From Chiloscyllium plagiosum (taxonomy: Eukaryota), in NCBI RefSeq assembly GCF_004010195.1, contig NC_057719.1, forward strand, positions 1,340,195 through 1,404,194: a DNA stretch of 64,000 nucleotides. The letters run 5' to 3'. Each line of letters begins with the position of its first letter. Positions within the stretch are counted from its first letter, which is position 1. A program made the position numbers and the translations under genes. The notes beneath the pieces were generated by a model. It did not search any database. It was not told where the DNA came from and saw only the letters and a list, made by a program, of their open reading frames with translations. Below are positions 4,063 to 52,474 of the stretch, one piece after another.

Positions 4063-4500
4063 ACAGAGATTCATATAGCTTATAGCACAGAAACAGACTT
4101 TTCGGTCCAACTTGTCCATGCTGACCAAATATCCTAAATTAATCTAGTTGCATTTGCCAGCATTTGGCCCGTATCCCTCCAAACCCTTCCTATTCGTATA
4201 CCCATCCAGATGCCTTTTAAATGTTGTAATTGTACCAGCCTCCACCACTTCCTCTGGCAGCTCATTCCATACATGCACCACCCTTTGTGTGATAAAGTTG
4301 CCCCCTTAGGTCCCTTCTATATCTTTCCCCTCTCACCCTAAACATATGCCCTCTAGTTCTGGATTCCCCGACCCCAGGTAAAGACCTTGTCTATTCGCCC
4401 TATCCATGCTCCTCATGATTTTATAAACTGCTATAAGGTCACTCCTTAGCCTCTGATGCTCCAGGGAAAACAGCCCCAGCATCCAAACCCTCCGACCCTG
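4063..4500 (-). mobile_element. CR1 LINE 3' fragment
   Basis: Similar to CR1 3' ends at 15015-15705 and 26925-27780. Confidence 0.8.
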
Positions 4501-5686: not shown

Positions 5687-6372
5687 CTCTCCTGAAGGGG
5701 CTGTCTCTCACTGAGGTACAGCGTCCCCCTCCCTCTCCTGAAGGGGCTGACCCTCACTGGGGTACGGGGTCCCCCTCCCTCTCCTGAAGGGGCGGACTCT
5801 CACTGGAGTACGGGGTCCCCCTCTCTCTCCTGAAGGGGCTGACCCTCACTGGGGTATGGGGTCCCCCTCCCTCTCCTGAAGGGGTGGACTCTCACTGGGG
5901 TACGGGGTCCCCCTCTCTCTCCTGAAGGGGCTGACCCTCACTGGGGTATGGGGTCCCCCTCCCTCTCCTGAAGGGGCTGACTCTCACTGAGGTACAGCGT
6001 CCCCCTCCCTCTCCTGAAGGGGCTGACCCTCACTGGGGTACGGGGTCCCCCTCCCTCTCCTGAAGAGGCTGCTCTCACTGGGATACGGGGTCCCCCTCCC
6101 TCTCCTGAAGGGGCTGCTCTCACTGGGGTACGGGGTCCCCCTCCCTCTCCTGAAGGGGCTGACCCTCACTGGGGTACGGGGTCTCCCTCCCTCTCCTGAA
6201 GGGGCTGACTCTCACTGGGGTATGATGTCCCCCTCCCTCTCCTGAAGGGGCTGACCCTCACTGGGGTACGGGGTCCCCCTCCCTCTCCTGAAGGGGCTGA
6301 CTCTCACTGGGGTACAGGTTCCCCCTCCTTCTCTTGAAGATGCTGAGTCTCACTGGGGTCCCCCTCCTCTCC
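5687..6372. repeat. 46-bp minisatellite, about 15 copies
   Basis: Unit CTCTCCTGAAGGGGCTGACCCTCACTGGGGTACGGGGTCCCCCTCC, with no spacers. Confidence 0.95.
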
Positions 6373-6636
6373 TACTCTCACTACCCTCAGAGGAAAAGAA
6401 ATCTCCTCACCTCTGTCTTAAATATTCGACCTTTACTCTGGAGTCATTGTTTTAAATTAGCTCCCTCTAGGGACTGCGAAGGCAAGTGTTTCTCCCTACC
6501 CCTTATCCCAGATGTAATAATCTACCAGTGAATGGGGTTAAACAGGCACTCTCTGCTCTTCACTCACCAATGTGTCTACCAGTTCTGTCGCCTTGGGTGG
6601 GGGAGTTCTCTTGATGTGCTTTGGTCTGAGCTTCAG

Positions 6637-7782
6637 GGTTGAAACTTTATTGCTGGAACAGCACAGCAGGTCAGGCAGCATCCAGGGAACAGGAGATTCG
6701 ACGTTTCGGGCACAGGCCCTTCTTCAGGAATGAGCAGAGAGTGTTCAGCAAGAGAAGATAAAAGGTAGGGAGGAGGGACTTGGAGGAGGGGCGTTGGAAA
6801 TGTGATAGGTGGAAAGAGGTCAAGGTGAGGGTGATAGGTCGGAGTAGGATGGAGGCGGAGAGGTCAAGAAGAAGACTGCAGGTCAGGAAGGCGGCGCCGG
6901 GCTGGGGGGACCCGGCGGAGACAAGGTGGGGGGAGGGGGGAAGAAGAAACTGGTGAAGTCCAAGTTCATCCCCTGCGGTTGGAGGGTTCCCAGTCGGAAG
7001 ATAAGACGCTCCTCCTCCGACCGTCGGGTTGTTGTGGTTTGGCGGTGGATGAGTCCAATGACCTGCATATCCTCGGTGGAGTGGGAGGGGGAGTGGAAAT
7101 GCTGTGCTACAGGTCATGTCCTTACCTGAGAAGAATATCCTTGTCTTCATAGAAGTACAACAAATTCCTATGTCGAGAGGGCTGCTTTGTCCGAAGAGAT
7201 GGAGTAGACGGAGCGAAATTCTCTGGAACTTAATAAAATGTTTAGAGGGATTGACAGTGGAGATGCAGAGAAGATATATCTCTGTGTTGTAAAGTCTCGT
7301 GCTGGGGGGCCATTGCCTCAGGATAAGGAATAGCTATTCAGGATTGAAATTAACAGCAGTTTCTTTTCTCAAAAGGTTGTGAATCTTCAGAATTGTGTAC
7401 CTCAGAGAATTGTGAGTGCACAGTTGTTGAGCATAATAAAGGATTTGATGGATGAATTTTTGGAGTTTAAGGGAATCAAAAGATACAGTGATAGTGCAGG
7501 AGAGTGAGATTGCAGTATAAAAAAAGGATTTAGAGGCTTGGATTGCTCCCTTTTCTTGCGTTTATATGTTTTCCACCTATCACATTTCCAACTCCCCTCC
7601 TCCAAGTCCCTCCTCCCTACCTTTTATCTTCTCTTGCTGAACACTCTCTGCTCATTCCTGAAGAAGGGCCTGTGCCCGAAACGTCGAATCTCCTGTTCCC
7701 TGGATGCTGCCTGACCTGCTGTGCTGTTCCAGCAATAAAGTTTCAACTTTGATCACCAGCATCTGCAGACCTCACTTTCTCC
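6637..7782. mobile_element. Young PLE insertion with inverted pLTR arms, GIY-YIG C-terminal fragment and captured internal DNA; 16-bp TSD
   Basis: TSD TTGGTCTGAGCTTCAG at 6621-6636 and 7783-7798. Arms 6638-6815 and 7570-7747 are near-identical. Minus-strand peptide RRSEEERLIFRLGTLQPQGMNLDF. Confidence 0.9.
7654..7689 (+). ncRNA. Minimal type-I hammerhead ribozyme motif in a PLE pLTR (inverted twin at 6696-6731)
   Basis: Stem I ATTC/GAAT, core CTGAAGA, stem II GGGC-CTGT-GCCC, GAAA, palindromic ACGT. Predicted cleavage after GTC at 7685. Confidence 0.8.
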
Positions 7783-8010
7783 TTGGTCTGAGCTTCAGTC
7801 AGATTGTGGACCCTAGCTGGATAGCGTGGCTGGGGACAGAATTAAGTTGGACCAGTGCCCCCTCCAGGCTAATGAGTGAACTGACCCTTCAGGATTAGAT
7901 GTGACTGTAAGCACCCTACAAACCAGTGAGAGACCAACATCTTGGAGAAATGAGCCGAGGAGCTGATGGTGAAAAGCCTTCTTTCACACTGTTTGTTCTG
8001 TTTCTTTCAG

Positions 8011-8251
8011 CATTGGGATCATCGGAGAGCCTTTCTCAAATTTCTTTTCAGATACACTCATCCCCATTGATTCTTACATCGAGAATGAAGGGACTGAGGA
8101 GTCAGTGGATGAGGAGGCTCTACTACAAAAGAGTGGATACTCTCATTCAACAGCCATCGAGTCCTCTCTGGGAGATATGAACTCCCATCATCAATATCTG
8201 GACATGTCGAGGGCTACAACTGTAGCTGCAGACTCTGAATACAACCTGTAA
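8011..8251 (+). CDS. Putative terminal coding exon of the same unidentified gene
   Basis: Acceptor gtttgttctgtttctttcAG. Phase-2 frame IGIIGEPFSNFFSDTLIPIDSYIENEGTEESVDEE...ADSEYNL* ends with TAA at 8249-8251. AATAAA follows at 8295. Confidence 0.6.
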
Positions 8252-8294
8252 ATGAGCAGGTTACACAACCAAAACTCACTTTAACCTATTTAGG

Positions 8295-8300
8295 AATAAA
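8295..8300 (+). terminator. Candidate polyadenylation signal of the upstream unidentified gene
   Basis: AATAAA 44 nt after the putative stop codon, followed by T/GT-rich sequence. Confidence 0.4.
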
Positions 8301-8449
8301 CCTTTTACTCTTTGCAAGCAAGTTACTTTGTTGTCTGATTGGGAGTCTCTCCCAATCCCATCCCCTCACTCGGCTCCTGATTCTTATAATCCAAGAAAGT
8401 GAAAGCCAACCCCAAGTTGCAACATTGCTTGTAGACCTGACCACCATCT

Positions 8450-8877
8450 GCACACACTCAGACACACAGACACAAACACACATCCACAGACACATGTACA
8501 CGCACAGACACACTCATGCACAGACACACTCACACACAGGCACGCACACGCGCATAGACACACACGTGCACAGACACACACACACAGGCACGCACACACG
8601 CATAGACACACACGCGCACAGACACACACACACACTTAGACATGCACAGACACACACACAGGCACGCACGCACGCATAGACACACACACGCGCACAGACA
8701 CACACACACAGGCACGCACACACGCAGGCATGCACACACACGACACGCACACACACGCACACAGGCACACACACACACACTTAGACATACAAACACACAC
8801 ACACAGACACACATGCACACATACACAGGCGCACACACACATTAGACATGCACAGATACACATACACACACACACCC
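8450..8877. repeat. Compound (CA)n/(CACG)-rich microsatellite with internal higher-order blocks
   Basis: Direct inspection. Confidence 0.95.
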
Positions 8878-9119
8878 ATTTGAGAGTAGTATCTCTGAAC
8901 TTGAAGGGACTGGCATCGATAAGAACTAAAGGACTTGCGTTTCTGGCAAGCCTTCATTCCAACTTTGTTCTCCCTCAGAAAAGCCAGTGATAAAGGAGTG
9001 GAGCCAGTCTTTTTTTATAAACATTTATTGATGGGAAACAAGCATGCACCACCTGACCCAGACTGTATCTATTCACAGAGCCACAAGGAAATCATTGATT
9101 AATGATCCACCTGGATGCA

Positions 9120-9345
9120 TTAAACTCAGGGGAATACCTACAAGTACCGCTCCGAGCGACTCACCATCCTGACTTGGAAATATATCACCGTTCCTTCACT
9201 GTCGCTGGGTCAAAATTTCTGCCCTAAGGGCATTGTGGGTTCAAGCAGTTGAACTACAGCAGTTCAAGAAGGCAGCTCACTCCCACCTACTCAACTAGAA
9301 ATGGACAATCAATGCTGGCCCGTGTCACACTAGTGAATATTAAAA
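9120..9345 (+). mobile_element. 3' fragment of the L2/CR1-group LINE family also found at 46472-49620
   Basis: CTCACCATCCTGACTTGGAAATATATCACCGTTCCTTCACTGTC matches the reverse complement of about 46640-46685. Confidence 0.7.
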
Positions 9346-9459
9346 GTTGATAGCCATTCAGTAAGAGGGCTATTGTGGGGCAATGATAGTGCCCCAATCT
9401 CTCAGCCAGGGGTCCCAGATTCTAGTCCCACCCATTCTAGAGATGTTTAATTCCATCTT

Positions 9460-10572
9460 CAGTTAAACTTCAGTGATGAGGATAGATTGAAGAAGTTGGG
9501 ATTGTGTTCCTTGGAGAGAAAGCAGCTGAGAGGAGATTTAATAGAGTTTTCAATATCATGATTGGGCTGGACAGAGTAGAGAGGGAGAAGCTGTTCCCAC
9601 TTGAAAAAGGAACAAGAAAGAGGGGGTAAGTTTAAGGTGATGTGCAAAGGAAGCAAGAGTGATGTGAGGAAAAAACATTTTACACAACGAGTAGTTAGGG
9701 TCTAGAGTGCACTGCCTGGAAATGTGATGGAGGCAATTTCAATTGAGGCATTCATATGGGGCACTGGATGGTTATTTGGATCAAAATGGTGTACAGGGAT
9801 ATGGGGAGAAAGCAGGAGATTGGCATTGGGTAGTGATAGCAGTGGGTACTGCAGATGCTGAAGATTAGAGTCAAGGTTAGTGTGGTGCTGGAAAAGCACA
9901 GCAAGTCAGGCAGCATCCGAGGAGCAGGAAAAATCGATTTTGGGCAAAAGCCCTTCATCAGGAATGAGGCTGGGAGCCTCCGGGGTGGAGAGATAAATGG
10001 GAGGAGGGTGGGGCTGGAGGGAAGGTTGCTGAGAGTGTACTAGGTGGATGGAGGTGAGGGTAAAGGTGATAGGTCAGAGAGGAGGGTGAGGCGGATAGGT
10101 GGGAAGAAAGCTTGACTGGACAGGTCATGAGGATGGTGCTGAGCTGGAAGGTTGGAACTGGGGTAAGGTGGGGGGAAGGGAAATGAGGAAACTGGTGAAG
10201 TCCACATTGATGCCCTGGGGTTGAAGCATCCCGAGACGGAAAATGAGGCGTTCTTCCTCCAGGCGTCGGGTGTTGCGGGAGCGGCGGTGGAAGAGGCCCA
10301 GGACCTGCATGTTGGCAGAGTGGGAGCGGGAGTTGAAATGTTCAGCCACAGGGCGGTGTGGTTGATTGGTGTGGGTGTCCCGAAGATGTTCCCTAAAGCG
10401 CTCTGCGAGGAGGCGTCCAGTCTCCCCAATGTAGAGGAGACCACATCGGGAGCAGTTTTTTTTCAGTTGGTTCCGGAGCAAAGAGATTGGGTATTGATGC
10501 TCATTTGAAGAGCCAGTGCATGCATGATGGGCTGAATGGCCTCATTCTGTGCCATAACAATTCTGTGATCTT
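9460..10572 (+). mobile_element. CR1 3' fragment interrupted by a PLE
   Basis: CR1 3' motifs at 9460-9837, resuming at 10486. Confidence 0.7.
9838..10485 (-). mobile_element. PLE 3' fragment (GIY-YIG endonuclease + pLTR + tail)
   Basis: Peptide CSRCGLLYIGETGRLLAERFREH...VAEHFN...LEEERLIFRLG. Hammerhead motif at about 9935-9966 (-). Imperfect 13-bp TSD ATTGGGTA(G/T)TGAT at 9825-9837 and 10486-10498. Confidence 0.9.
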
Positions 10573-11001
10573 AGAACAGATTGATTAGAAACCAACTACG
10601 CAGGGAGCACTCAGGAGGTCTCAAAGCGAATTACAGTAATGCCGAATGAAGTACTTTTCAAGTGGTCATTATTGTAATGAAGGAAACATGGCAACCAATT
10701 TGCATGCAGCAAACTTCCGCAATATGATAATAGCCAAAATTAGTTTTAACAGTGCAATCTTCCTTTTATAATTAACCCAAAAAGAGCCTGTGTTTGACAG
10801 CTTGCCTTCCACCGCCTGTGACAGGTGGCAGGGATCACAGCAGCTCTACAACAGGCTGCTTCCCCCTCTCCCACTCCTACCACCATCAAATCTCTTGCCC
10901 AAAACTTCCAACCTGTGTCTCTATCACCGTTGATTGTTTCCGGTGCCTGAATGAGACTCTCTCATCCAAAAGACGACAAGCAATGTCTGCCTAGATTGTT
11001 G

Positions 11002-11744
11002 TGTTATGGACTCGGCCAGACCACTCAAAACATTCTAAAGCAGGCAGCCCTGACCGTTATTTTGCAATTTGTTTTGATAAGTGTACAGTGAAAATTACCC
11101 GGAGTAAGGTAGCTAGGTTGGCTATCTGGGTTTAAAACAGTCAAAAATTTATTCACAAAATTACGGAATGGAACACAACAGAATAAAGAACACCAACAGA
11201 GCTCAGTCTATCCAAACTAGACTTAATTATGCTGTGTGGAATATTCACAACAGTTCCAATAAACAAACCCCTTACAGACAGTAAAAATGAAACAAAGGCT
11301 TACAGGTTGAAGTTAGAAGGGCAGAAGGAGAGAGAGTCTAGCAGCCTGTTTCCACACAGCTCACAGCTGAACTCCTAACTTAACTTCAGTTTCTAGGACT
11401 GAACTGCTCAGCTAGAAAGCTGACCATGCCCCTTGACTTATATGGGTTACTTCTAAAAACATGAAAGCTTTGGCCTAAAGTCTTACCTGTGCACGTATAA
11501 AAAAAAGGCCTTTCATCTCTGCACCAAACCAGTTGATTCAGAGATTGAGTGGTTTACGACCCCTCTGAGAAAAAACAAGGAAACAGTATTCATACGCTCC
11601 AAAAGCTAGTGCTTCCACTGAAACCTGTTGGACTATAACCTGGTTTTGTGTGATTTTTAACTTTGTACACCCCAGTCCAAAACTGGCATCTCCAAATCTT
11701 GAGAAAAGGAACAGCTTTTAGAAAAAAGCACCAGTGTTGCGACA
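11002..11744 (-). mobile_element. Probable solo LTR (Gypsy-like), carrying a small PLE fragment at about 11590-11700
   Basis: Termini TGTTATG...GCGACA, flanks GTTG/CTTG (imperfect 4-bp TSD), minus-strand AATAAA near 11147-11152. Confidence 0.55.
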
Positions 11745-12224
11745 CTTGGTTCAAGACTCTGCAGTGCAAGCTTGAACACACGACCTTCCAGAGAATTGGA
11801 CCGAGGAATACGAAGTAAAACAGATGAGGAAGAAGTTGTGTGCTCGGTTCCAACAGCTCAAAGTTGAGACAGTAGCACAGCATCTTGGCGATATGCTCGA
11901 CAAGCAAGACAGTGAGATAATAGAATAGTATTAGTTGTGGCAGTATTATTAAAAGACAACATTACAGCAGTTGAATGAACATAAAATATCTCTGTTGGAA
12001 GATAAATGAAAAATAAAATAAATTAAGGTAAAGAACTTAGTGCATTCAATATTCATTAAAAAATGTTAATAGACAAATAATGAAGTTTAAGGCAACAAGC
12101 TCTCCATGTTCTGACTTGTTTCTGTCACACCATAGCAAAACAAATGGGAAGGAAATTGTAAAAGCTGTAATATTCTAAAGCTATCTGTATTTGGAAATTA
12201 TTCCATTAAAAGCTTTTTTAAAAA

Positions 12225-12422
12225 TTACCATAATCTTACCAGACCACTGAGAAAGAGATGATGGGTGGAGTTTAATCTAAGGGTCACCACAGTTCAGGCA
12301 AGGGGAGAGGTTGAGAAGGAGAGTCCTTCAAGGTGACCTCAGCCAGTGTGGGAATTGAACCCATGCTGTTAGCATCACTCTGCATTGCAAACCAGCTCTT
12401 CACCCAACTGAACTAACCAACT
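12225..12422 (-). mobile_element. tRNA-derived SINE (third family; other copies at about 25717-25925, 50862-51062, 52000-52175, 57200-57420, all minus)
   Basis: Minus-strand head GGTTAGYTCAGTTGG...GGGTTCAATTCCC. Shared body GGTCACCAC...CAGGYGAGGGGAGAGGTTGAGAAG. Confidence 0.7.
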
Positions 12423-13199
12423 CCCTGTCATTCAATTAGATTGGAACTTGTTAATGTTTTAAAGAAATACAACGTAAGAGCAGGAGCAGGTTATATGGTC
12501 CCGGAAGGCTGCTCACCTTTTCAAAATAGCAACTCCACCTTGATCCAAGGAACTGGCATGGATAGAGGATTGGCTGACTGGCAGAAGGCAGACAGTAGGG
12601 TTAAACAGTGTTTCAGGATGTTAGCCAGTAACTAGGAGTTCTACAGGGGTCAGTGTTGGACTACAGCTATTCATGTTAATACATTAATGAACTGGACGAA
12701 GGAACTGAATGAATGAATTAGCTTTATTGTCACATGTACTCAAATGAGTGCAGCGAAAGTTCTGCAAGTTGTCGCCTTTGGCACCATCTTAGATACAAAC
12801 ATCCCTTGGTACAGCTTTTTCAGTTTCGGTTCTTAGAAAAATAGAGAAATCAAAAGAAAAGTCTAGCATTGCAGGTTCAGGAATAAATCATAAAACTGAG
12901 AAAAAATTAATAGAGAAATAGTCTTTGGACCCGGTCCACATTAATACCCAGCCTCTGGTCTGCACTGGGCCTTGATCCAGACTGAGCCTGGCTTCACCTC
13001 AGGGCTCACGAGGCTGGGTGATCGCTCCGGAATCATTGTGAGACCGGAAATTTCTGAAGCCTTTCCCTTTAGAAAATAGTCTATGCCTCTATTCTCCCTA
13101 TCAAAGTGCACAACCACACACTTTCCCACATTGTACTCTACGTGCCCCTTCTATGCCCACTCTCCTAGCTTGTCCAAATCTTTCTGTAGCCTCCCCAGG

Positions 13200-13930
13200 T
13201 TGACACGACCATTTATAGTTAAACTAGAAAGAGTGCAGAAAAGATTTGCTAGGATACTATGTGGACTGGGAGGTTTGAGTTATAAGGAGAGGTGACAGGC
13301 TGGGACCTTATTCCCAGGAGTGTAGGATACTGTGGGGTGAACTTATAGAGGTTTATAAAATAATGCGAGGCTTAGATAAGGTAGATAGCCAACAGCTTTT
13401 CCCCAGGGTAGGGAAGTTTAAAACTAGAGGGCATAGGTTTAAGGTGAGAGGGGAGAGATACAATAGAGGTAAAAACAATGACTGCAGATGCTGGAAACCA
13501 GATTCTGGATTAGTGGTGCTGGAAGAGCACAGCAATTCAGGCAGCATCCGAGGACAGGCAAAATCCGAGGACGGGCAAAATGCCCGAAACGTCGATTTTG
13601 CCTGTCCTCGGATTTTGCCTGTCCTCGGATGCTGCCTGAATTGCTGTGCTCTTCCAGCACCACTAATCCAGAGATACAATAGAGTCCAGTGGGGCAATTT
13701 TTTCACGCAGAGTGTGGTGAGTGTCTAGAATGGGCTTTCACTCGTAATGGTGGAGGTGAGTACAATTTTGTCATTTATGAAACACTTGGACAGGTACATG
13801 GATGGGATAGGTATGGAGGGATATACACCAAACACAAACCAGTGGGACTGCATTACTTGCGAAAACTGAGTGGCATGGACAAGTTGGGCTGAAGGGCCTG
13901 TTTCTATGCTGTAAACCTCTGGTTCTATAA
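13200..13930 (+). mobile_element. CR1 3' fragment interrupted by a mini-PLE
   Basis: KLERVQKRF, MRGLDKVDSQQLFPRVG...RGHRFKVRG motifs. Confidence 0.85.
13469..13670. mobile_element. Palindromic mini-PLE with 14-bp TSD
   Basis: TSD GAGATACAATAGAG at 13455-13468 and 13671-13684. Arms meet at the hammerhead stem II GGGCAAAATGCCC. Confidence 0.9.
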
Positions 13931-15705: not shown

Positions 15706-16459
15706 TGAAGTTTTCGAGATATAACAGGAAAATACAGGGTAGGCAGAGATAAACTATTTCTAATAGTTGGGTGTTTGAGCGCTAGGGGGCATAGTCTAAA
15801 CATTAGGTCCAGACTAAAGGAGTGGTAGATGTTTGGAACTCTCTTCCACAAACTGCAGTGGATGCTGGATCAGTTGTCAATTTTAAAATTGAGATGGATG
15901 ATTTTTTTGTTAATCAAAGGTATGAAAGGATGTAAGCCAAAGGATATGGAGTTAGTCCACAGGTTAGCCATGATCTCATTGAATGGTAGAACTGGCTCAA
16001 AGGGCAGAATGGCCTACTCCTGTTCCTGTGATGCTGTTGAATGAAATTAGTGTTTCAAATATCCCAACAATATTCTAAGATTATTTGGGAAAATGCTCCA
16101 ATTTCCTGATTTCTGGGGAATAGGATAGCCCCAGGGTTAGAATCATAAAATTCCAACAGTACAGAAAGAGCACTGAATCAGCACTGAACCTCCAAAGAGC
16201 ATTCTACCCAGACCCACTGCTCACCACCCCATTCCCATAATCCCTCATGGAATTTTTACCGTGGCTAATCTGCACATTGCTGGACACTATGGGACTTTTT
16301 TTGCATAGCCAATCCACCTAACCTGCACAAAAGAGTCGTAGAGTCACACAGCACAGAAATATACCCTTCGGTCCAACTAGTCCATGCTGAACATAATCCC
16401 AAACTAAATTAGACTCACCAACTCCTCCTGGCTCATATCTCTCATATACTTATCAAAGT

Positions 16460-17786
16460 CGGAGGGTGGGTAGGCCACCCTGATGCCAGTTGCCCCGAGA
16501 GCCAGATGGTGGGTAGGCTGTTCTGAGCACTGTCGTCCCGATAAGGGGTAATCGGGACGGGCTGTCCTAGAGGTGGTCAAAAGGTGTCAGAGCAGCCAAG
16601 AGTCAGAAGGTGCGTAGGGGCGGGCTGAGATCCGGAAGGCTTGTGAGCTACCATACACGCTGTCATCCCAGGGAAGGGGACGGGCTGTCCTAGAGGTGGC
16701 CGAAAGGTGTGCCAGGATAGCCCACTGGTCGGAGGTGCAACGGGGTGGGTGAGAGCCCAATGGTACGTAGGGGCAGACCGAGAGCCAGAAGGCGGGTAGC
16801 CGTCCTCGGCGCTGTCACCCCGGGCAGGTACCGGGGCGGGCTGCCCCAGAGGTGGTCGGAAGGTGCTGAGGGTGGTTAGTGAAGCCGGAAGGTGGGTAGG
16901 CCGTCCTGACTGCTGTCACCCTGGGCGGGTACCAGGGCGGGCTGTCCTAGAGGTGGTCGAAAGGTGTCAGAGCAGCCGAGAGCCAGAAGGCATGAACTCC
17001 TGGGTTTCCCCTTATTTCTGGTAGGCAATTTTTTTTTTAATCGTGAATATGGGCACAAAAACTTAAGTAGGCATTCAATGGAGGATATTGCTGTTTTGAT
17101 TCAGTGGTGTTACATTTGTGCAACTCCTCGATGGCAAATGGTGTTCCATTCACATTGATGACCTGGGTTGAAGTGTTTTGAGGCGGAAGATGAGCTGTTC
17201 TTCCTCCAGGCATCAGGTGGTGAGGGAGGATTGGTGCTTCAACTTGCTGGTCTACTGCTCTGGTCTTCAGTATTTAAAACCAATTGATATTTCTGTCGCA
17301 ACAAAGCAGAAATGTGCCTGCAATTGAGTAGTCTAATGATTAATGCTAGATTACCTCTGACTCGAATGCCTAAGTGGCTGAGCCTATAATGTGATGAACC
17401 CTGTAGTGTAAAGAGTTAATTGTTGTCAGGGCGGACCGAGAACTGGAAGGGGCATGGGGTGGACCGAGAACCGGAAGGTGGATAGGGGCGGGCTTCCTTA
17501 GTGGTCGGAAGGTGGGAGGGGTGGGAGCTTGCTGAGTCTGTATTGTCTGCACTTTTGTATGTAACAGTACTGTGTAATGTACAACTGTCATTGCTGTTGT
17601 CTCTTTATATCTTTATGTGAAACTGGGATTTGAAGTTTGTCCTCATGTCCCTGTAAACTGTTTGAACGGTAGGGTTTGGGGCCTGGCTTTGCTGCTCCTC
17701 TCCCTTGTAAAATTGCTGTCTCTTGTATGCAGCTGTAAATGTAACTGTTTGTTGTAAACTGCTTTTGTAATTTGTTTAATAAAATA
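16460..17786 (+). mobile_element. Non-coding composite VNTR-containing insertion with perfect 16-bp TSD
   Basis: TSD ATATACTTATCAAAGT at 16444-16459 and 17787-17802. GC-rich irregular repeats, an internal PLE fragment and a TGTA-rich 3' end with AATAAA at 17778. Confidence 0.75.
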
Positions 17787-18361
17787 ATATACTTATCAAA
17801 GTGTCTTTTGAACATTGCAACTGTGCCTGCATCCATCACTTCCTCAGGACTTTCAGTCCACACAGGAACCACCCTCTGTGTAAAAAAATTGCCTCTCATG
17901 TCTTTTTAAATCTCTCTCCTCTCATCTTAAAAATGTGCTCCCTGGTCTTGAAGTCCCACATCCTAGGGAAAAGATAACTACCATTAACTCTATCTATATC
18001 CCTCATTATTTTATAAACTTCTCTAAGGTCACCTCTCAACTCCTACACTCCAGTGAAAAAGGTCCCAGCTCACCCAGCCTCTCTTTATAACTCAAACCTT
18101 TCATACCAGCAACATCCTGGTAAATCTCTTCTGAACCCTCTCCAGCTTAATAATATCCTTCCTATAACTGAGTGACCAGAACCCTCACCAATGTCCTGTA
18201 CAAACTCAAGATAACTTCTCAACTCCTATACTCAAAGGACTGAGGAAATAAGGCAAATATGCCAAACACCTGTCTTTATGTGATGCAAACTTCAAAGAAT
18301 TCTGGAGATGAACCCTGACAGTACAACACTACCCAAGCCCTACCATTAATTGTATATCAAC

Positions 18362-18763
18362 TAGGCGACAATGAGGACTGCAGATGCTGGAAATCAGAGT
18401 CTGATGAAGGGCTTAAGCCCGAAATGTTGATTCTCCTGCTCCTTGGATGCTGCCTGAGCTGCTGTCCTTTTCCAGCACTACACTCTTGACATTGCTTGTA
18501 TGTTCTGGATCAGTGGTGCTGGAAGAGCACAGCAGTTCAGGCAGCATCCAAGGAGCTTCGAAATCGACGTTTCGGGCAAAAGCTCTTCATCAGGAAAAAA
18601 GGCAGTGAGCCTGAAGCATGGAGAGATAAGCTAGAGGAGGGTGGGGGTGGGGAGAAAGTAGCATAGAGTACAATGGGTGAGTGGGGGAAGGGATGAAGGT
18701 GATAGGTCAGGGAGGAGAGGGTGGAGTGGATAGGTGGAAAAGGAGATAGGCAGGTAGGACAAG
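18362..18763. mobile_element. Rearranged PLE composite (tail, pLTR and a second-subfamily pLTR in mixed orientations)
   Basis: Hammerhead motifs at 18411 (+) and about 18564-18595 (-). Flanks ATTGTATAT/ATTGTATGT. Confidence 0.75.
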
Positions 18764-19745: not shown

Positions 19746-20168
19746 TGGCCTGCAGAGGCAGCACATGTTGTTTCTGGTGCGGCCCCTTTAACTGGCAGCA
19801 CGTGGTTACACTCAAACATGGCCTGTGGACCTAAGCAACAAGGAGGGGGGGGGGGCTGGAGTCACAGAATAATAACTTACAATAAACAATTCTGCTCGAA
19901 GTAGGGAGGCTACTTCGCAACGCTGATTATTATAAACTTAAATAAAAAGTGGAGATGTTGGCTGTATTTATTTTAATAATTTGCAGTTTCTCCCTCGCCA
20001 CTCTATTGAGCTCCCCACACAACCCCCCCCCCTTGATAGTTGGTGAATGAGCGATTCCGGGCCAGAGGCTCAGTCTGAGGCTGAACGGCGGCGGGGACGG
20101 AGCCCGGGACCGGGACAGGGACCGGGGCCTAGGGACAGGAGAGGGACCGGGGACCGGAGACTGGAACG

Positions 20169-20249
20169 GAGCCCGAGCCCGGGACAGGGACTGGAGACCG
20201 AGCCCGAGCCCGGGACAGGGACTGGAGACCGAGCCCGAGCCCGGGACAG
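20169..20249 (+). repeat. 31-bp GC-rich tandem repeat (about 2.6 copies) upstream of the BRF1 ATG
   Basis: GAGCCCGAGCCCGGGACAGGGACTGGAGACC at 20169, 20200 and a partial copy at 20231. Confidence 0.85.
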
Positions 20250-20490
20250 AGACCGGGGCCTAGGGACCGGGACCGGGGCCGGGGCCGGGGACCGGAGACA
20301 GGGACAGGAGCCCGCCGGGGGGTGTCTGTGAGGGGGACACCGGGGCCCGGAGCTGAGGCACCTCCCTCGGGGGGTGGGGAGGGAGTGTGAGAGACAAAGA
20401 GGAATTCCCGGCCCCCGATCGCCGAGAAGCCTCGGGCTTTCCTGCGGAGAGTATCGGGAGCCTGGTGGCGGGTCGCCGGGGCGGGTCACC

Positions 20491-20677
20491 ATGTCGAGCT
20501 CCCGGGTTTGCCGAACCTGCGGCTGCACGGACATTGACATTGACCAGGCCCGGGGCGATGCGGTCTGTACGGCCTGTGGCTCCGTGCTCGAGGATAACAT
20601 CATCGTCTCCGAGGTACAGTTCGTGGAGAACAGCGGCGGCGGCTCCTCGGCTGTTGGACAGTTCGTCTCCTCGGACA
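20491..20677 (+). CDS. BRF1: BRF1 (RNA polymerase III transcription factor IIIB 90 kDa subunit), first coding exon (TFIIB-type Zn ribbon)
   Basis: GTCACC-ATG at 20491. Translation [62 protein letters not shown] has CxxC...CxxC and the vertebrate BRF1 N-terminal motif [18 protein letters not shown]. Phase-1 donor A|GTGAGT at 20678. Confidence 0.95.
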
Positions 20678-22369: not shown

Positions 22370-22686
22370 GGGCGGCACGGTGGCGCAGTGGTTAGCACTG
22401 CTGCCTCACAGTGCCAGAGGGCCGGGTTCAATTCCCGCCTCAGGCGACTGATTGTGTGGAGTTTGTACATTCTCCCCGTGTCTGCGTGGGTTTCCTCCGG
22501 GTGCTCCGGTTTCCGCCCACAGTCCAAAGATGTGCAGGTCAGGTGAATTGGCCATGCTAAATTGTCCGTAGTGTTAGGTAAGGGATAAATGTAGGGGTAT
22601 GGGTGGGTTGCGCTTCGGCGGGTCGGTGTGGATTTGTTGGGCCGAAGGGCCTGTTTCCACACTGTAATCTAATCTTAAAAAAAATC
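22370..22686 (+). mobile_element. HE1-like V-SINE, full length
   Basis: A box, B box GGTTCAATTCC, V-domain, TAATC tail. Confidence 0.9.
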
Positions 22687-23201: not shown

Positions 23202-23532
23202 GGGTGGCACGGTGGCACAGTGGTTAGCACTGCTGCCTCACAGCACCTGAGACCTGGGTTCAATTCTCGCCTCAGGCGACTGACTGTGTGGAGTTTGCAC
23301 GTTCTCCCCGTGTCTGCGTGGGTTTCCTCCGGGTGCTCCGGTTTCCTCCCACAGTCCAAAAAAGATGTGCAGGGTCAGGTGAATTGGCCATGCTAAATTG
23401 CCCGTAGTGTTAGGTAAGGGGTAAATGTAGGGGTATGGGTGGGTTTCGCTTCGGCGGGTCGGTGTGGACTTGTTGGGCCGAAGGGCCTGTTTCCACACTG
23501 TAATGTAATCTAATGTAATCTAAAAAATCTAA
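23202..23532 (+). mobile_element. HE1-like V-SINE, full length
   Basis: A box, B box, V-domain, TAATC/TAATG tail. Confidence 0.9.
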
Positions 23533-51241: not shown

Positions 51242-51511
51242 GAGGCAGCGTGTCAGAGTCCGATCACCTTTCAAAAACAATAAATCCCCTTGGGTCCAGT
51301 GTGGAAGAGAGGCCTTTGTTTTAAAACTGTTTCTGAGAGTTCTGGACTCTCCTGTAAGATGAAACGACCTTTCCAAGAGGCAGCGTGTCAGAGTCCGATC
51401 ACCTTTCAAAAACAATAAATCCCCTTGGGTCCAGTGTGGAAGAGAGGCCTTTGTTTTAAAACTCTTTCTGAGAGTTCTGGACTGTCCTGTAAGATGAAAC
51501 AACCTTTCCAA
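51242..51511. repeat. 135-bp tandem duplication (2 copies) in a degenerate CR1
   Basis: Units start at 51242 and 51377, with about 3 substitutions. Confidence 0.9.
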
Positions 51512-52474
51512 GTCAGGTGGGGTGTTGGGGTGGTGGTGGTGGTTGGACCAGTCTGGAGGGGGTCTGTGTCAGAGGGTTGTCTCAGCCTAGGGTGGGGGAG
51601 AAAGGAAGGAATAGGATGGACCAGGGAGGGAGGTGACTGGACAGGTGGAGGGTCACGTTTTTGAATTTGACTTCTGCCCTTAAGTTTGGATGTTAAAAGT
51701 TCCACCACAGTGTCATTGGGAGATGCACCTGAAGGCTTGTTTATTAATTGTTGCACACAGTTCAGCTCAACGGCAAGGGCTGGAAGGAGAAGTAGGCCTG
51801 ACATTTTTCAGTTTTTACAGTCAACAAAGTGTTATAGATTATAACAGGTCAGTAAAAACCATGAGAAATTCAGGAAGTTTGCAGGGATTTGCAAAGGGTT
51901 GGTTATGTTTGCCGAACCCAGAACTGTTCCCTGAGGAGGCTACCAGGTGCTGTCAGGATGGCTGAGGGAGGATGTCATATATGGAGTTTTATTGACCGAC
52001 TGGACTATCAGGCTGTTCTCTCATTAGAGAGACATGATTGGTAGTGATTTAACCTGAAGCTGACTCCAGCTTGGGTGAGGGAAGAGATTGAGAAGGTGGT
52101 ATCCTGAGCCAGTTCAGCAATCGAACCTGTGGTGTTGGTGTCACAAACCAGCCATCCAGTCACCTGAGCTAAACCTCCTTAAGCTCCTTTATTTAACTTC
52201 CTCTTCGATATGTCTCTTTACCTTAAACTGTCCTTGAGTTCCACACTCTTAACACAGTCTCTCTGCAAAAATGTTTCTTCTGAATTCACTATAAGATTTT
52301 ACACTTTTAGAAAAAATGCAGGAAATATTTTGACCATAAGACGAGCAGAAGTGGGGCCATTCAGCCCATTGAGTCTGTTCCACCTTTCAGTGAGATCATG
52401 CCTGATCCTCAACTCCCTGTTCTTGCATTTATAAGTCTTAGTGGTAGGACATGGGGAAGGAATATTGAACTGAG

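Follow-up and report, generated by a model that had tools for sequence, protein, structure and literature searches.

A retroposed insert in a shark-like genome joins the ends of an abundant family, with a predicted tandem RNA three-way junction, to an apparently captured host segment

In the window (the whole stretch of 64,000 nucleotides that was analysed), the 3' end of an old LINE is interrupted by an insert of 1,327 bp lying between two 16-bp repeats. The insertion is real and retroposed. Its array and its 3' block belong to one abundant multi-copy family in organisms A, B and C, and its middle of about 430 bases (16993-17423) appears, judging from the sequencing runs examined, to be a one-off capture of host DNA and not a family domain. 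The irregular VNTR noticed by the initial annotation is predicted to be a single RNA three-way junction repeated four times in tandem, which that annotation had overlooked.

The insert had been described as flanked by a perfect 16-bp target site duplication (TSD), with a continuous CR1 3' end after its excision. Within the window, the exact 16-mer is indeed found at 16444 and 17787 and nowhere else. Exact direct repeats of at least 16 nt, 200-5000 bp apart, number 87 in the window, 39 of them outside three tandem arrays; such a 16-mer alone is therefore not rare, and it is the restored host repeat which proves the TSD. When the insert is removed, the flanks align through the junction with two other copies of the host repeat. 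One of these, at 32949-32287, matches in 482 of 676 columns (71%), gaps of 2-5 nt lying close to the duplicated 16-mer; for the other, at 4084-4480, the figure is 270 of 401. Both parts of the description hold. A further homologue of the host repeat, at 2852-2571, is located directly downstream of reverse-transcriptase frames at 1775-2628. The host LINE is presumably CR1-like, a name given from its C-terminal peptide.

Judged by its repeat types, the window resembles shark DNA. No second copy of the composite was found within the 64-kb window. Other features of the window were recorded as well. The first coding exon of a Brf1-like TFIIIB subunit (20491-20676, + strand; Pfam TFIIB zinc ribbon, PDB Brf1 chains at E 1e-8) lies within a CpG island that also contains a GC-rich tandem repeat of 31 bp (20104-20314), and the insert is situated 2,689 bp upstream of the ATG of this exon on the same strand. 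A 46-bp tandem repeat occupies 5687-6359 (14.7 copies, 90% matches), and a 135-bp unit is present in two tandem copies at 51242-51512 (97% matches). An inverted pair at 18401-18593, with 81-nt arms that are 83% complementary and 31 nt apart, belongs to a very common short repeat, while 22386-22670 and 23218-23505 form a near-identical direct duplication with a spacing of about 832-836 bp.

Table 1. Features of the insert and its target site (positions in the window)
Feature	Position	Strand	Evidence
Interrupted host LINE 3' end, distal half	16330..16443	-	Empty-site alignment to 32949-32287 and 4084-4480
Left TSD copy	16444..16459	.	Exact 16-mer
5'-truncated GC-rich family array, four predicted three-way-junction units and short spacers	16460..16992	+	X1 summed depth 11,598-25,907
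Predicted three-way junction unit 1	16516..16597	+	Fold -43.5 kcal/mol, z -6.4; pair table
Predicted three-way junction unit 2	16642..16725	+	Unmodified z -1.0, other lowest-energy fold
Predicted three-way junction unit 3	16797..16880	+	Fold -47.9 kcal/mol, z -2.8; pair table
Predicted three-way junction unit 4	16899..16977	+	z -0.1, other lowest-energy fold; two P1 mismatches
Apparently captured single-copy piece 1	16993..17133	+	X1 1,842-nt contig
Apparently captured single-copy piece 2, Penelope scrap inside	17134..17423	+	X1 249-nt contig; X11 1,564-nt contig
Old scrap, presumably Penelope-like endonuclease C-terminus	17151..17228	-	81% over 79 nt to 10203-10281; peptide match
Start of family 3' part, G-rich remnant	17424..17530	+	Array joints to 17424-17427 in X1, X11, X16
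Family TGTA-rich 3' block ending in AATAAA	17531..17786	+	X1 depth 50,128-218,289; + strand RNA in X21
Right TSD copy	17787..17802	.	Exact 16-mer
Interrupted host LINE 3' end, proximal half	17803..18305	-	Homologous to 2852-2571

The array has a GC content of 64%, and its modules of 80-85 nt recur at 101-156 nt spacing; it was not reported by Tandem Repeats Finder at score 40. All four anchors of the initial annotation were found in place (16559, 16682, 16838 and 16939). The second VNTR remnant and the TGTA-rich tail are likewise present, TGTA occurring 12 times in the 256 nt of the tail block, and the tail was correctly said to end in AATAAA (17778-17783, 3 nt ahead of the right TSD copy) with no poly(A) at the 3' end of the insert. 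The scrap described as a Penelope endonuclease is present too, with similarity to a second stretch of the window (Table 1). It is presumably Penelope-like; a Pfam search with it gave no match, and its depth in X1 reached 585,092.

The insert had also been described as non-coding, and this stands. Its longest stop-to-stop frame is 112 aa. For the 112-aa minus frame of the array, two matches were obtained among 1.84 billion proteins, both to unrelated repeat proteins, and the 64-aa plus frame had no match among longer proteins, which is weak evidence. A coding array was rejected because protein searches with the array frames gave no relative.

The copy state of each part was read from four of 24 matching sequencing runs, aligned to 16150-18100 at 85% likeness. 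These are X1 (organism A), X11 (organism B), X16 (organism C, guessed to be RNA) and X21, a poly(A) single-cell run. The portion of the run read was 84% for X1 and 62% for X11, and contigs drop rare variants. Besides the array (Table 1), the 3' part reached summed depths of 29,556-218,289 in X1, against 11.4, 10.5, 11.9 and 11.9 in the four bins of the middle (inside 17008-17139 and 17272-17403), and in X11 the family parts gave 6,079-13,309 and 3,808-24,921 against at most 9.27 in the middle; the summed depths are inflated by overlapping short contigs and do not equal copy numbers. Depth was higher towards the 3' end of the family, as with 5' truncation. At each of the 8 listed array sites, variants were carried by 13-63 distinct contigs in X1 and 32-65 in X11, and at the tail site 17661 by 100 X1 and 81 X11 contigs. 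The copy number of the family is estimated at hundreds to thousands. Both the array and the 3' part are also present in X16. Organism D, with word shares of 0.08-0.17, was not counted as a family carrier; word shares of runs cannot show whether this locus is present or absent.

Joints leading from the array to 17424-17427 were found in X1, X11 and X16 (four of the 15 listed, out of 547; the letters between the joined parts are not known). The array is thus joined straight to the 3' part in other copies, which are without the middle. The idea of an SVA-like composite family is accordingly upheld for the two ends, which are multi-copy, the 3' block being transcribed as well; in the four runs examined it is not supported for the middle, which is single-copy in X1 and skipped by other copies.

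RNA-seq mapping, proposed in the initial annotation, placed the tail in + strand poly(A) RNA. In the five tail bins of X21, the first mate was on the minus strand at 8.3-63.9 and on the plus strand at 0-5.9. The highest contrast, 63.9 vs 4.1, stands against a balanced right host LINE flank (15.3 vs 13.0), so the reads represent + strand RNA of the family 3' block. Only 36 of 490 X21 reads were at least 95% alike, and they therefore derive mostly from other family copies. X21, of which about 2% was covered, gave no reads on the four unique bins and no pile-up of read ends, and no run recorded as RNA was among the matches of the run search; neither carries evidential weight.

Two side observations concern the family as a whole. 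Its 3' bins (17404-17799) are about 6-13-fold deeper in organism A than in B and the array 0.9-3.2-fold; a recent burst of short family copies in organism A is possible. In addition, one X1 contig with a depth of 68.9 joins the family 3' end (17790) via 33 letters to the array of another copy (16465). About 12 of these letters could, on this one row, represent a target site lying between copies stacked on one another, a pattern seen with target-specific Tx1 elements.

The middle of the insert behaves differently from its ends. Piece 1 is found without interruption in an X1 contig of 1,842 nt (depth 11.6), where it occupies letters 427-566, differs by one gap and no substitutions, and is preceded by 426 non-family letters. 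This contig alone accounts for both bins of piece 1 (11.6 x 65/66 = 11.4; 11.6 x 60/66 = 10.5), and the window junctions 16992/3 and 17133/4 were therefore not seen in X1. Piece 2 is found in a 249-nt X1 contig (17203-17451, depth 11.9) without a difference, and this contig continues into the family 3' part. In organism B, 17201-17423 corresponds to letters 1-245 of a 1,564-nt contig, in which 1,319 further letters follow. The breakpoint 17423/17424 is given by two kinds of rows, the end of the organism B match and the start of the family joints. Between pieces 1 and 2, at least 1.28 kb is skipped, and an intron, a jump or a second locus may account for this. The absence of substitutions in 140 + 249 letters relative to X1 indicates that the capture is young. 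At the donor locus of piece 2, a short family copy would have been inserted in the lineage of organism A. The copy in the window would then be young and probably absent from the X1 individual; the chimeric junctions and the empty-site joint were not among the listed joints (84% of X1, 62% of X11), which proves nothing. A retrocopy had been offered as the alternative to a composite family. The middle does behave as a retrocopied host piece, and the ends are family sequence.

At the 5' junction, related repeat letters lie upstream of 16461-16465 in other copies. The family thus continues beyond this point and the copy in the window is 5'-truncated. The TSD ends in AAAGT, and the family reads AAAG upstream of the truncation point in two of three rows. 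At the 3' junction, one contig matches through the first 4 letters of the TSD; with these shared letters, the TSD length becomes 12-16 bp, and a priming site without poly(A) was on offer. In LTR-mediated retrocopies the TSD is short, 4-6 bp. The bottom-strand nick would be ATAT/GA or AAGT/AT, with no T-run, and endonucleases of the L1/Tx1/Nimb type have a T-rich/purine site. At the internal junctions, no canonical + strand splice signal was found, given the alignment borders. Passages of PMC4245944 give TSD lengths of 15 bp for L1, 10-15 bp for Nimb-2 and 5 bp for ZfL2-1, and name 5' microhomology as common in truncated inserts. The insert shares with L1/Tx1/Nimb-type insertions the 12-16 bp TSD and the 5' truncation with microhomology; in place of the poly(A) tail of such target-primed insertions stand AATAAA, 3 nt and then the TSD. 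The signature of RTE mobilisation was not found: RTE-mobilised retroposons, according to PMC6007223, have a TSD whose first letter is T and which follows a T stretch at a distance of about 10 nt, and the TSD here starts with A, with no T stretch upstream.

The reading preferred for these data, with about an even chance of being correct, is a recent, 5'-truncated target-primed insertion by a LINE of the long-TSD (L1/Tx1) type, made chimeric by a template switch from a donor read-through RNA to a family RNA. A family copy, short and 5'-truncated, would have been inserted beside piece 2 in the organism A lineage, and read-through RNA of this donor locus would have ended at the AATAAA of the family copy and so carried the family 3' end. 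The LINE enzyme may then have primed at the A/T-rich end of this RNA by 4-letter pairing, hence no poly(A), and would have copied the tail, piece 2 and, after the skip of at least 1.28 kb (a splice or a jump), piece 1. Reverse transcription would next have switched to another family RNA, of which four junction units were copied, and the 5' join to the target could have been made by the 4-letter microhomology. The missing poly(A), a nick that is not a T-run, internal junctions with no splice signal and an unexplained skip speak against this scheme. The family sequence continues upstream of 16460 and may represent a 3' UTR belonging to a coding LINE; the non-autonomous nature proposed in the initial annotation is thus one of two candidate readings.

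The blunt, unspliced look of both internal junctions and the family sequence on both sides of the middle, which here needs no RNA switch, would also be explained if a family copy had been inserted first, producing the TSD, and a later break had been repaired from the donor via the shared 3' part, pieces 2 and 1 being copied in. The rare letter at 16646 in the window copy, present in X1 contigs and in no X11 contig, agrees with this, but it could equally derive from a template copy elsewhere; repair would further require a break, an ectopic invasion, a jump of at least 1.28 kb and end-joining, and the TSD is perfect. Such a two-step history is judged unlikely. Less probable still is a young subfamily which includes the middle and was multiplied in the lineage of the window assembly alone, in the strict sense the SVA-like family of the initial annotation. 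The share of the insert words did not exceed 0.64 in any of the listed runs, so that the assembled individual or population is perhaps unrepresented, and the X1 contig of depth 68.9, with a 3' end joined to another array, implies that joined forms can be multi-copy. However, X1 shows the middle at single-copy depth and X11 at that depth or less. Its identity to X1 means that the organism of the window is A or very near, and the window holds no second copy.

A single RNA with no switch, in which family copies flank pieces 1 and 2 in the same direction and a spliced or deleted read-through transcript was retrocopied whole, is quite improbable. Donor-like AAG|GT sites do follow each family spacer, and fusions of spliced host exons to L1 within a single TSD are described in bioRxiv 10.1101/2025.02.02.635956, but the match to the donor contig begins at 16993 and not at 16988-16990 as the nearest splice site predicts, and 426 non-family letters stand ahead of piece 1 in that contig. 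Mis-joining of repeat copies to unique DNA in the assembly is hardly credible. The two chimeric junctions were indeed not seen among the contigs examined, whereas the exact TSD restoring the host repeat and the microhomologies at both outer junctions are unlike mis-joins, and the junction 17423/17424 is present in X1.

The array is the part of the insert in which a repeated RNA structure is predicted. The plan of a unit on the + strand is P1 - (U)GUC - P2 hairpin - G - P3 - RRAA - P1, with P3 of 7 bp and a CYAGA loop; the anchor forms the core of the unit, and position 17424, where the family resumes after the middle, falls within the P1 3' strand of a last unit. The sequences of units 1 and 3 fold into the junction as they stand. 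Unit 2, when three of its letters are replaced by those prevailing in other copies (carried by 70-99% of the depth of those copies), adopts the same junction, with a change from -32.9 to -41.8 kcal/mol, and this rescue may be regarded as the most independent test of the structure. One majority letter in unit 4 did not rescue its fold. The minus strand of unit 1 also folds well (z -5.6).

In the pair table, which was derived from the same four units with the register of P1 set by hand and the outer P1 of unit 2 omitted, 100 of 105 cells are paired, compared with 33-51 after a shift of the 3' partners by 1-3. Two-sided changes occur in seven columns, three in P2 and four in P1. With an automatic alignment limited to the inner helices, 95.7% of 70 cells were paired, and the covariation score was reached by 10 of 500 shuffles, which for four related rows is only suggestive. 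P3 is nearly invariant, with 14 of its 28 cells G-U in a G-rich strand, and has no two-sided support. The excess of G-U over A-C (28 vs 5 cells) is descriptive, as invariant columns are counted four times. RNAalifold on the automatic alignment gave an unbranched consensus fold. The model R1, built from the four units with an automatic structure that is not branched, found those four units and one further match at E 0.16. Some of the paired changes could result from hairpin correction at the DNA level. As the most likely interpretation, the repeated junction would be a cis-acting RNA element of the family, for protein binding, RNP loading or stability, kept by structural selection.

Rfam searches gave three matches at E 1.6-1.9 and one at E 8, all far below the gathering scores. 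With E limits of 5 or 10, Rfam gave no tRNA, 5S or 7SL head, and the 5' end is missing in this copy. The hammerhead core has the form CUGANGA...GAAA and is absent from either strand of the insert; the order GUC, CUG..GA, GAAA at the junction resembles a hammerhead, and this is the sole likeness. Two patterns searched in metagenome contigs gave no match, and two pattern matches in IMG/VR were dismissed as isolated matches of 20-22 nt.

Chimeric LINE insertions are already known, and 16444-17802 is a clean, young example outside mammals. The capture itself is one fossil event; what deserves further work is the tandem RNA junction. The family matters more than the one insertion, being abundant, transcribed and present in several shark-like species, with one RNA fold apparently kept while the sequence drifts. 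Its hundreds of genomic units would form a covariation data set, and an RNA of 85 nt is open to direct assays of self-cleavage or protein binding. A gene-less family would represent an SVA-like system in animals other than apes; a family that is a LINE 3' UTR would represent a reiterated structured cis-element. Either outcome bears on RNA recognition by retroelements and on the formation of retrocopies in sharks. The most far-reaching version, a gene-less LINE-dependent shark retroposon, independent of primate SVA, whose array would be a tandem series of an undescribed functional RNA motif (possibly a new self-cleaving ribozyme, or a signal for loading of the LINE protein by which pieces of host transcripts are captured and moved, as in this copy), is considered unlikely.

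Four motif words from the insert occur in no paper of the literature searched, in which no description of the family or of the junction motif was found; the family may already be named, for instance in Repbase or Dfam. The passages available from PMC5203782, PMC11979771, PMC5499810 and PMC3747384 hold nothing on either. Among known systems, the non-LTR retrozymes, as described in bioRxiv 10.64898/2026.07.22.740005 (see also PMC7229834), share tandem three-way-junction RNA monomers and a Penelope-rich genome; the insert differs in that it lacks a hammerhead core and has a fixed AATAAA tail after the array. The crocodilian Tx1-clade LINEs and SINEU, in the portion of PMC4494074 concerned, have 16-bp TSDs and 5' additions by template switch, as proposed here, and their tandem copies sandwich a target site; SINEU differs in its snRNA head, which the insert is without, and no partner LINE was found here.

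The hominoid elements SVA, LAVA, PVA and FVA, as presented in passages of PMC4432496, likewise have a non-coding GC-rich array with a non-random order of units. They also resemble the insert in the poly(A)-signal 3' end, the TSD, the LINE-type insertion and the joining of host pieces to the array. The part of the family present in the insert, a 5'-truncated copy, contains no CT-hexamer or Alu-like head. The hominoid elements differ in their units of 30-50 bp, as opposed to structured modules of 80-85 nt at 101-156 nt spacing; in addition, the unique middle is not common to the family in the runs examined, and the host here is shark-like. As two defining features, VNTR units of 30-50 bp and, in the runs examined, a shared composite 3' domain, are lacking, the insert is not classed as SVA/LAVA. 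With the LTR-mediated retrocopies in the excerpt of PMC5131818, it shares the order element - host piece(s) - element, explained by template switches, whereas the lack of LTR ends, the 12-16-bp TSD and the terminal AATAAA speak for a non-LTR mechanism. In its working, the insert is closest to the L1 chimeras and 5' transductions with mRNA or lncRNA pieces described in bioRxiv 10.1101/2025.02.02.635956: as proposed for the insert, host RNA of another locus is joined in them to the 3' part of a retroelement, and a single TSD of 14-17 bp encloses the product. The insert differs in that family sequence flanks its host piece on either side, its element part is short and does not code, and neither a poly(A) nor a splice signal at the junctions is present.
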